64,000 nt of DNA, taken from positions 4,062-68,061 of the forward strand of contig JAVBOR010000024.1 of the NCBI GenBank assembly GCA_031550325.1. The letters are read 5' to 3'. The stretch's first letter is position 1. Every line of letters begins with the position of its first letter. This DNA is from Oscillospiraceae bacterium. GTDB lineage: Bacteria; Bacillota; Clostridia; Oscillospirales; UBA929. This document shows, piece by piece, positions 43,500-45,251 of the stretch. The position numbers and the translations under genes were made by a program. The notes beneath the pieces are model-generated. The model searched no databases, was not told the origin of the DNA, and saw only the letters and a list, made by a program, of their open reading frames with translations.

Positions 43500-45251
43500 C
43501 TATGCCTCGACGCGGGACGGACTGAGCGCTTGCGCGGATTCGGAGCCGTCGGGCTCGCTTTGCGGACGATGGGAGATGTTCTGAATGGTGTCGTACGTCT
43601 TGGAAACGGCCTGGCTGATCTCCTGAATCATTTGATTGATGGCGCCTGTGGATGAAACCGCCTGTTTGGATACCTCGGCGGTCTCCGAAACGGTCTTTTT
43701 GGAGCTTTTCGCCAGGCTGCGGATCTCCTCGGCCACCACGGCAAACGCCTTGCCGTGAACGCCCGCGCGGGCAGCCTCGACAGAGGCGTTGAGCGAGATG
43801 ATGTTGATGTGCATGGCGATCAGGTCAATTTCATTGGCCATGGTGCCGTATTGCTTGAACGCCCGGTTGACGTCCTGGATGTTGGACAGGATGTCGTCGG
43901 AGAGCGTTTTGACATTGGAGATATCGGACAGAATGATCTCAAGGTTGTTAATATTCTTCTCCTGGATGGACAAAACCGCGGCGTGCTCGGACTGAATGTC
44001 GTTTCGGGTTTTTTCAATGCAGTTCATCGGCGTATTAACGCCGATAGCCACCTTGCCAGCCATGTTCCGGCAGCTGTCCGAGCCGCACGCGCCGCAGTCA
44101 AACTGGCGCTGGACGGACGTTTGCTTGCCCAAAAGCTCAAAGCCCTTCTCGATATCCTCGCCCGTAATCGTCTGGGTGTAAACGCGCTTGGAGGTGTAAT
44201 GCCTGACAAAGTCGTTGAGATTAAAAATATGGTCAAAGGTCTCATACAGCTTGTCAAAATAAGCCTTTTCGCGGTTTTGTGTGACCTGCTTGCGCTCCCT
44301 GTCCATGATGGAGTTGATTTCAAACATATCCTTGTGATGATTGCAGCCTGTGCCCAGATTGCAGCCCTCGGGACAGTTGAGTACGTCAAAGATAGCTGGA
44401 AGATGGTCTTTCTTTTGGACGGAAAACTGATCCAGCGCCCGGTAGACCACCGCCTGCCCCTCGCATTTGTCTATGCGCAGCGCCTTGCCCAGATAAAACT
44501 CTACGTTTTCTTTCAGCCCGCCGGGCATGGAGTAGAGCCTTCCGAGCACGGAGTCCGGACTGTCAAAGGAGCCCGGCTGCTGGGGAAGCGTGATGTGGTG
44601 CCTGTGAATATAGTCGCGCAGCTTCTTGAAGGTCACGTTATATTTGGCAAGGCCCGTGGCGTCAAACTCATCAGCCTTGGCGATACAGGGCGAGAGCACG
44701 GCGAGAGAATCCGTAATGTTTTTGTTTTTTTTCATATAAATGGCCGTACACAGCATAGGGCTGTGGATGGGGGAGAGGTTGGGGATAAGCTCGGGGCGGT
44801 ACATCTGGATGTACTTGACAATGGCCGGGCACGGCTGGGTGATCACCGACGCCGGCTGATTTTTTTGGATAAACCGTATGTGCGCCCAGGTGCAGATGTC
44901 CGCACCCAGAGAAACGTCGAAGATGTTGCGCACGCCCAGCTGACGAAGCCAGGCCAGGATGCGCCCGAACTCCTCCAGATTGGCGCGCCCCGCCGGGGCG
45001 GCAAACATGGAAATGCGCGCGCCGTTGCTGAGATCGGACAGAAACCGTTCGGTATCGTCCTCGTAATCGCGAGACTCGTGCCGACAGGCCTGGATACACG
45101 CGCCGCAGGCGATGCACCTGTCGTTGTTGATGCGCACCTTGATGGCGCCGTTCTCCATGAACGCGACGTTGGCCTCTTCCACGGGGCAGACCCGGATACA
45201 GCGGTTGCAGCCGACACATGTTGACAGATCATTGATGATGAGCTTTCTCAT
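43500..45251 (-). CDS. [FeFe]-hydrogenase-like (H-cluster domain) protein fused to a methyl-accepting chemotaxis signalling domain; putative sensory hydrogenase
   Basis: 583 aa, AGAGGGG SD. Two ferredoxin-type motifs ([23 protein letters not shown]). H-cluster-like motifs are TQPCP (canonical TSCCP), SPCIAK (canonical MPCxxK) and [11 protein letters not shown] (canonical MACxxGCxxGGG). An extra Cys motif reads [9 protein letters not shown]-x16-C. The C-terminal MCP core is [43 protein letters not shown]. Confidence 0.8.
   Translation of the reverse strand: [583 protein letters not shown]

Follow-up and report, generated by a model that had tools for sequence, protein, structure and literature searches.

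The 64,000-nucleotide stretch of DNA analysed here (the window; contig JAVBOR010000024.1 of the Oscillospiraceae assembly GCA_031550325.1) carries on its minus strand, at 43500–45251, a complete open reading frame (ORF) of 583 codons plus stop, whose product joins a hydrogenase-like sensor to the signalling hairpin of methyl-accepting chemotaxis proteins (MCPs). The original prediction, made from the DNA letters, had placed the ORF at exactly these coordinates on this strand and had read it as a putative H2-sensing [FeFe]-hydrogenase–MCP fusion; the sequence comparisons described below support that interpretation, with H2 sensing as the presumed function. A Shine-Dalgarno-like AGAGGGG, read from the sequence, lies on the same strand at 45256–45262, 4 nt before the ATG, and an independent Logan contig carries an identical 583-residue product. 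Along the protein, all parts of which are encoded on the minus strand, a ferredoxin-like F-domain with two [4Fe-4S] sites (residues 5–58; 45078–45239; Pfam Fer4_7 and Fer4_10, the latter at residues 5–56 with E 9e-11) is followed by the core of an [FeFe]-hydrogenase H-domain (residues 83–300; 44352–45005), which matches Pfam Fe_hyd_lg_C with an E value of 1e-27 and 97.8 bits against a cutoff of 22.1, over profile positions 6–244 of 245. Next come four cysteines with the exact spacing Cx2Cx4Cx16C (C386, C389, C394 and C411; 44019–44096), a predicted extra [4Fe-4S] site matched by the FeS family PF04060 at residues 383–412 with 22.2 bits, slightly below its cutoff of 23. Finally, the MCP hairpin (N-arm helix 408–495 and C-arm helix 497–565; 43557–44030) contains an MCPsignal match at residues 450–559 (E 4e-19; 69.5 bits against a cutoff of 34.6). 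The profile check proposed with the original prediction (Fe_hyd_lg_C, Fer4 and MCPsignal) therefore recovered all three domain types.

We compared the window protein with two sets of relatives: 120 database homologues that are 54–68% identical to it, and a genome set of 78 more divergent homologues (45–60% identity, 11 phylum labels) from species-representative genomes, drawn from the best 80 loci of at least 570 matches. The database homologues have the same length and are annotated either as ‘methyl-accepting chemotaxis protein’ or as ‘iron only hydrogenase large subunit’. Each of the eight F-domain cysteines (C12, C15, C18, C22, C46, C49, C52 and C56) is kept in at least 118 of the 120. For the H-domain, residues were placed in the numbering of the Clostridium pasteurianum hydrogenase CpI, using a reference sequence that agrees with PDB 1feh/4xdc at every one of residues 1–574 (100% identity), by aligning CpI to a profile of the 120 sequences with hhalign (probability 98.8; window residues 3–248 against CpI 138–425) and by HMMER alignments to solved hydrogenases. 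In the latter, the L1 motif TQPCP (residues 138–142; 44826–44840) pairs with FTSCCP and the L2 motif SPCIAK (residues 187–192; 44676–44693) with MPCTAK or MPCTSK. The L3 motif NCPEGC (residues 292–297; 44361–44378) was placed by Pfam and TIGR04105 matches together with sub-threshold HMMER segments, the stretch from F288 to residue 303 pairing with I/VEVMACxGGCxxGGG.

These alignments indicate that the four H-cluster ligands are retained, as originally claimed: C141, C189, C293 and C297 have their apparent equivalents in CpI C300, C355, C499 and C503, and are invariant across the roughly 200 homologues. Other residues of the CpI active site are kept as well (K192 for K358, E195 for E361, P86 for P231 and S164-P165 for S323-P324), and S160 retains the position of S319. 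Several other positions around the H-cluster are altered. The first cysteine of the canonical TSCCP motif, the proton-relay residue C299, is replaced by P140, and proline stands here in all of the roughly 200 homologues, as the original prediction had read it; loss of C299 as a trait of sensory classes is documented for the M2f and M2e subclasses. In addition, M353 becomes S187, M497 becomes L291 (directly before NCPEGC), S232 becomes A87 and F417 becomes Y240, and the counterpart of the CpI helix with E279 and E282 has lost 4 residues and offers no acidic residue in their place (W122-A123-H124-I125-R126-F127). Among the sensory sequences in HydDB, proline occupies the C299 position in about 10% and serine the M353 position in about 32%. 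Three further cysteines, C120, C168 and C303, stand where CpI has T275, I327 and Q509; they are invariant or nearly so in the family and could serve as another proton route, shield the cofactor or sense redox state.

The four H-cluster cysteines, the four C-terminal cysteines, P140, S187, L291, K192, E195, P86 and P165 are each found in 120 of 120 database homologues, as are all of Q139, P140, C141 and P142 in the L1 motif. The genome set gives 78/78 or 77/78 at the same positions, with P140 and the Cx2Cx4Cx16C cysteines at 78/78. In all, the 20 cluster cysteines and P140 are unchanged, or almost so, in both sets. Such conservation leaves no doubt that these positions are functional sites rather than chance resemblances. 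Since every metal ligand and the full electron-relay F-domain are present, one could suppose that the protein is a catalytically competent hydrogenase whose C-terminal coiled coil serves only oligomerisation or localisation. We regard this as extremely improbable: the proton-relay cysteine and both pathway glutamates are absent, and the curated models for catalytic hydrogenases score far below their cutoffs (TIGR04105, 131 bits against 450; TIGR02512, 98.9 against 405.95).

The C-terminal hairpin argues in the same direction. An AlphaFold2 model built from the 120-sequence alignment (mean predicted local distance difference test score, pLDDT, 86.6; predicted TM-score 0.73) shows a hydrogenase fold that extends to about residue 380. 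In Foldseek searches of the PDB the top matches are exclusively [FeFe]-hydrogenases, led by 8a6t_A (E 2.8e-18) and followed by CbA5H, HydABC, DdH and CpI, in alignments of about 430–460 columns that span the whole F-domain and H-domain (E from about 1e-18 to 1e-14). Beyond the C-terminal cluster the model consists simply of two helices, 408–495 and 497–565, which a turn at 496 joins into a hairpin. Residues 564–583 are disordered (pLDDT below 50), and the tail at 566–583 (43503–43556), modelled with low confidence, is non-conserved and unaligned in the homologues. The hairpin aligns with structures of Tsr, Aer and Tm14, and its kinase-control tip (residues 478–514; 43710–43820; alignments to 6s1k_E and 8c5v_I) runs at a constant offset of 107 to full-length Tsr. 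N488, E492, R495, G497, G500 and F503 thus correspond to Tsr N381, E385, R388, G390, G393 and F396, and all six of these trimer- and kinase-contacting residues are present in 120 of 120 homologues. This full and invariant tip signature goes beyond what a generic coiled coil for oligomerisation or localisation would show. In line with the soluble MCP hairpin recognised by the original prediction, the tip sequence quoted there lies at residues 487–514 and we found no transmembrane segment in the window protein (the highest 19-residue Kyte-Doolittle mean is 1.2); nor did we find a HAMP domain, or a PAS domain among Pfam matches at E ≤ 1.

The model also shows where the sensor meets its output. 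The MCP N-arm helix starts at residue 408 and includes C411, the last ligand of the C-terminal cluster, in its first turn; C411 and the tip glycine are 86 residues apart in 117 of the 120 database homologues and in 55 of the 78 members of the genome set. The span amounts to about 12 heptads and is comparable by length to the shortest (24H) receptor class. So rigid a spacing of cluster and tip hints at the way in which the signal may be relayed.

The architecture has already been named: it is that of HydDB “[FeFe] Group C2, chemotactic (putative)”, described by Sondergaard, Pedersen & Greening 2016 (PMC5037454) with proposed H2 sensing and signalling through MCPs. The original prediction had assigned the protein to this chemotactic subgroup, and its architecture agrees with the HydDB description, since the H-domain, the four H-cluster cysteine ligands and the MCP domain stand in one polypeptide; we found no difference from the group in this respect. 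The sequence itself is new, its closest database relative being 68% identical. H2-taxis by hydrogenase–MCP fusions has been a proposal since 2007 for termite-gut bacteria; a 2016 study of Fibrobacteres reported putative sensory hydrogenases in flagellated termite-gut lineages, and orientation along H2 gradients was proposed for termite-gut Fibromonadaceae possessing flagellar and che genes.

The characterised sensory members of the wider class are TmHydS and TamHydS only; each takes up the [2Fe] subcluster and shows a slow reaction with H2. M2f (group C) and M2e (group D) proteins have in common the F-domain, the Cx2Cx4Cx16C motif and the absence of both C299 and the proton pathway, the motif being described in PMC8163306; the exact spacing and coordinates that the original prediction gave for it, along with its link to such proteins, hold up here. 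Thermotoga maritima HydS (group C, M2f; Chongdar et al. 2018; PMC10055695) shares with the window protein the two N-terminal [4Fe-4S] sites, all cluster ligands, the Cx2Cx4Cx16C [4Fe-4S] site between sensor and output, and the lack of C299, M353, M497 and the canonical proton pathway. The three positions are Ala131, Gly177 and Ser267 in TmHydS and Pro140, Ser187 and Leu291 here, and the output is a PAS domain in TmHydS but an MCP hairpin in the window protein. Thus, with no PAS domain and with an MCP helix from residue 408, the window protein is not of the M2f/HydS type, although its sensor core is the same. Thermoanaerobacter mathranii HydS (group D, M2e; PMC8163306, PMC13104023) likewise has the F-domain, an H-domain without the relay and the Cx2Cx4Cx16C cluster but, unlike the window protein, lacks any fused output domain. 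On the output side, Aer, Aer2, HemAT and the soluble Tm14 resemble the window protein in combining a cofactor-binding cytoplasmic sensor with an MCP kinase-control hairpin. Those receptors, however, use PAS-FAD or PAS/globin-heme where the window protein uses an FeS/H-cluster domain, and relative to them the window protein lacks HAMP and methylation sites and has a shorter hairpin. A functional analogue is found in the [NiFe] group 2b systems (HoxBC/HupUV with the kinase HoxJ/HupT), in which a low-activity hydrogenase serves as H2 sensor coupled to a signalling protein; there, the metal site and fold are unrelated, the sensor is not joined to its kinase in one protein, and the system acts on transcription rather than taxis.

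We then considered the relatives of the sensor. It belongs to a large family: a word-based comparison gives more than 5,000 proteins at E ≤ 1e-10, clustering at 50% identity gives 665 clusters at E ≤ 1e-30, and the top identity among the matches listed from species-representative genomes is 60%. The closest C2 homologue of the window protein, at 68% identity, is encoded in a metagenome-assembled genome (MAG), GCA_031551205.1; it is present in the same sequencing run as the window protein, and no che or hyd genes lie beside it. The best 80 genomic loci come almost entirely from termite-gut MAGs and carry the phylum labels Bacillota, Fibrobacterota, Desulfobacterota, Pseudomonadota, Synergistota, Spirochaetota, Deferribacterota, Cloacimonadota, Planctomycetota, Bdellovibrionota and Acidobacteriota. 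Of 79 nearest-neighbour pairs, 15 join loci with different phylum labels, with identities that reach 75% for MAGs labelled Planctomycetota and Desulfobacterota; this points to horizontal spread in an H2-rich habitat or, as a caveat of such assemblies, to binning errors. Tandem paralogues of the sensor gene occur in six loci.

There is no conserved gene neighbourhood overall, the commonest neighbour family occurring in 11 of 78 loci. In nine of the 78, however, hydG lies immediately 3' of the sensor gene on the same strand (L014, L017, L024, L039, L041, L042, L048, L049 and L058), the hosts being Fibrobacterota, one Deferribacteraceae MAG and one Azoarcus-labelled termite-gut MAG. The HydG matches score 463–876 bits against a cutoff of 312, and HydF, encoded at several of these loci, scores 456–509 bits, above its curated cutoff. 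At L017:3230-8612, in the Azoarcus-labelled MAG, the order is C2, hydG, hydE, hydF, with HydE at 249.8 bits, slightly below its cutoff of 254.6. No catalytic hydrogenase was found among the ten flanking genes scanned in the hydG-linked loci. This maturase linkage is the best available argument for a genuine [2Fe] subcluster, and so for an H-cluster, in the family; the sensor and maturation genes may travel together as a cassette.

Relatives also reuse the sensor with other outputs. Among the 60 nearest representatives of the 50%-identity clusters, compared over residues 1 to about 430 (34–51% identity among themselves), 27 carry MCPsignal, 21 carry HisKA and HATPase domains (20 of these with a receiver), six carry GGDEF and one EAL. 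The non-MCP fusions are 40–57% identical to the window protein over the same region, reach 1,760 residues and often contain GAF or PAS domains; histidine-kinase-linked (C1-like) proteins have the sensor module in common with the nearest clusters. The 2016 HydDB table (PMC5037454) names no subgroup for a GGDEF-linked [FeFe] sensor. Signalling proteins thus employ this H-domain clade as an input module, and its reuse with signalling outputs argues for a role in sensing and against the catalytic alternative raised above.

Taken together, we think it probable that the window protein is a soluble cytoplasmic chemoreceptor in which a non-catalytic [FeFe]-hydrogenase domain reads H2 and the kinase-control tip provides the output. 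In such a receptor, HydE, HydF and HydG would attach a [2Fe] subcluster to the [4Fe-4S] cluster whose ligands are C141, C189, C293 and C297. H2 would then bind at the H-cluster and be oxidised slowly, so that the redox state of the site would track the H2 partial pressure; with proline in place of C299 and no acidic equivalents of E279 and E282, poor turnover is proposed, and with it a redox state that follows H2. Electrons would come into equilibrium with both N-terminal [4Fe-4S] clusters and perhaps with ferredoxin as well. A redox or conformational change would pass through the C-terminal Cx2Cx4Cx16C cluster, whose last ligand, C411, sits in the opening turn of the 88-residue N-arm helix, and would arrive at the canonical hairpin tip that controls CheA/CheW, and swimming would be biased relative to H2 gradients if these steps are coupled to motility in this organism. 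Without methylation sites, the receptor would probably not adapt classically.

Several observations weigh against this reading. At the sensor, the L3 cysteine equivalence is somewhat less secure than the others, as this segment is reached solely by Pfam and TIGR04105 profile matches that run end to end and by colinear sub-threshold HMMER segments in four solved hydrogenases. The M497L variant of CpI has been reported to lack a properly integrated [2Fe] subcluster, and leucine is invariant at this position in the window family. Further along the proposed route, H2 does not reduce the C-terminal cluster of TamHydS and its authors dispute redox signalling through it, which urges caution about a simple redox relay in the window protein. 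At the output, neither of the methylation motifs [ASTG][ASTG]xx[EQ][EQ]xx[ASTG][ASTG] and EExxA[ST] occurs in the window protein (the consensus is present in at most 3 of the 120 homologues), and the short C-arm ends at the equivalent of Tsr 458, before Tsr methylation sites 493 and 502; classical CheR/CheB adaptation is thus unlikely. As to partner genes, no che, flagellar, hydE/F/G or other hydrogenase gene was found among the approximately 50 ORFs annotated in the window, in agreement with the original prediction as regards che and maturase genes. The receiver-domain neighbours in related loci, considered as candidate CheA/CheY operons, turned out to belong to hybrid histidine kinases and not to CheA, and that candidate was rejected. 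Finally, our full-text literature search found no biochemical or experimental study of any C2 member, in agreement with the original prediction; nor did the Ethanoligenens paper or the termite paper of He et al. contain anything on this fusion.

Some of these points would fit an H-domain that holds [4Fe-4S] only, like eukaryotic Nar1/NARF, or a modified cofactor, and that reports redox, O2 or CO rather than H2 by way of the protein's four or five FeS clusters. The invariant leucine at M497, the alanine that replaces CpI S232 in the family, the invariant C120, C168 and C303 without CpI counterparts and the lack of maturase genes in the window are all compatible with such a domain, as is the fact that soluble PAS-type 24H receptors typically sense redox or O2. 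We nevertheless judge this explanation improbable. The hydG gene (with hydE or hydF in some cases) directly 3' of the sensor gene in nine loci, with no catalytic hydrogenase among the scanned flanks, speaks for maturation of the sensor itself; the [2Fe]-site residues equivalent to K358, P231, P324 and E361 and the bridging cysteine are invariant; and TmHydS, whose residues at the C299, M353 and M497 positions are likewise non-canonical, is nonetheless matured and reacts with H2.

Other points concern the output. The sensor could be an H-cluster H2 sensor whose Che-like output acts outside motility, on cyclic di-GMP (c-di-GMP), biofilm formation or gene expression, or it could be an orphan receptor in a non-motile organism. 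The 64 kb hold no che or flagellar genes, yet encode several c-di-GMP proteins (EIIC-EAL, PocR-GGDEF-EAL); the signalling domain is short, of about 24H length and without methylation sites, and the signalling pathway of 24H receptors is often unclear; and the fusions of the same sensor to GGDEF and hybrid histidine kinases in relatives indicate that non-motility outputs are common for it. Against this, the tip residues for CheA/CheW contact and for trimers of dimers are invariant, as in receptors of flagellar arrays, many hosts of close homologues are motile, chemotactic termite-gut bacteria, and other MCP genes adjoin the sensor gene in eight related loci. On balance, an output outside motility or an orphan receptor seems rather unlikely, and less likely than the motility-linked reading that we favour.

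A bolder view of the C2 family as a whole can also be taken. Proline, serine and leucine are invariant at the C299, M353 and M497 positions and C120, C168 and C303 are added; on this view the environment of the H-cluster might be unlike that of characterised hydrogenases. With the signalling helix beginning at the last ligand of the C-terminal cluster, at a set distance of 86 residues from the tip, the protein might act as a direct, adaptation-free ‘metallocluster-to-coiled-coil’ transducer. Such a device might compare H2 with the ferredoxin pool, or sense CO or O2, and move between phyla with its own hydGEF cassette. We consider this combination of ideas quite unlikely as a whole.

Around the sensor gene, the downstream gatB is convergent and an upstream gene for a solute-binding protein lies 304 bp away. 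The upstream gap contains a palindrome with a 21-bp stem (45423–45469; an inverted repeat, 95% complementary) that probably ends the transcript of the solute-binding-protein gene. A separate transcript for the sensor gene, as implied by its original description as monocistronic, is plausible from this layout, given the convergent gatB and the hairpin in the 304-bp gap. A scan for promoter and terminator consensus sequences gave nothing beyond shuffled expectation. The upstream palindrome includes one copy of a repetitive extragenic palindromic (REP)-like motif, TCCCGGATTCACTCCG (45436–45452), and a second copy lies downstream of the sensor gene at the 3' end of gatB (43353–43369). The earlier remark that the gene is flanked by repeats accordingly holds in so far as the palindrome occurs on both sides; it does not mark the gene, because the repeat is dispersed through the window, with seven copies at up to 3 mismatches (31548, 33600, 43353, 45436, 56816 and 58239/58243) against 0.15 expected. 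A mobile element bounded by the flanking repeats was rejected, as the same palindrome recurs at unrelated intergenic sites of the window.

The rest of the window encodes housekeeping functions (a Mur ligase, ruvCAB, a gene of the phosphoglucosamine/phosphoglucomutase family, ligA, gatA/gatB, der and plsY), along with glycoside hydrolases and SLH, cell-wall and c-di-GMP functions. Its RuvB groups with uncultured Oscillospiraceae and is 83% identical to its nearest named relatives. One of the c-di-GMP genes, at 29266–31407 on the plus strand, encodes a 713-residue protein with a phosphotransferase system EIIC membrane domain (residues 26–346) and a C-terminal EAL phosphodiesterase domain (residues 459–690), which looks like an unusual transporter-like sensor/effector fusion. 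Another, at 59468–63406 on the minus strand, encodes a signalling protein of 1312 residues with a PocR sensory domain, GGDEF and EAL; the two genes suggest active c-di-GMP signalling in the organism. A 1633-residue GH26 mannanase with CBM11 (2617–7518, plus strand) and an SLH-anchored GH18 (31700–33352, plus strand) are consistent with a polysaccharide-degrading gut member of the Oscillospiraceae. In this 60%-GC DNA, two long minus-strand ORFs, at 12744–14936 (730 residues) and 16782–19133 (783 residues), were rejected as spurious antisense frames from the GC content at third codon positions. The true genes lie on the plus strand: three tandem M42 aminopeptidase paralogues at 11860–14903 and two PaaK-like AMP-binding ligases at 16611–19241, followed by an ACT-domain protein at 19261–19740 (plus strand).

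The window gene is an ordinary, well-preserved and full-length addition to a large, catalogued class of proposed H2 sensors. As one of thousands of similar sequences, and from an uncultured host, it gives no special access to the question of H2-taxis; the interest lies in the class and not in this copy. To what has been said of that class, the present analysis adds the maturase linkage, the defined invariant substitutions to proline, serine and leucine, and the rigid spacing that separates the C-terminal cluster from the kinase-control tip. In anaerobic gut ecosystems H2 serves as a central currency, and its gradients in termite guts are steep; navigation of bacteria along such gradients has been a proposal since 2007, for which the window protein provides a clean, full-length candidate receptor.

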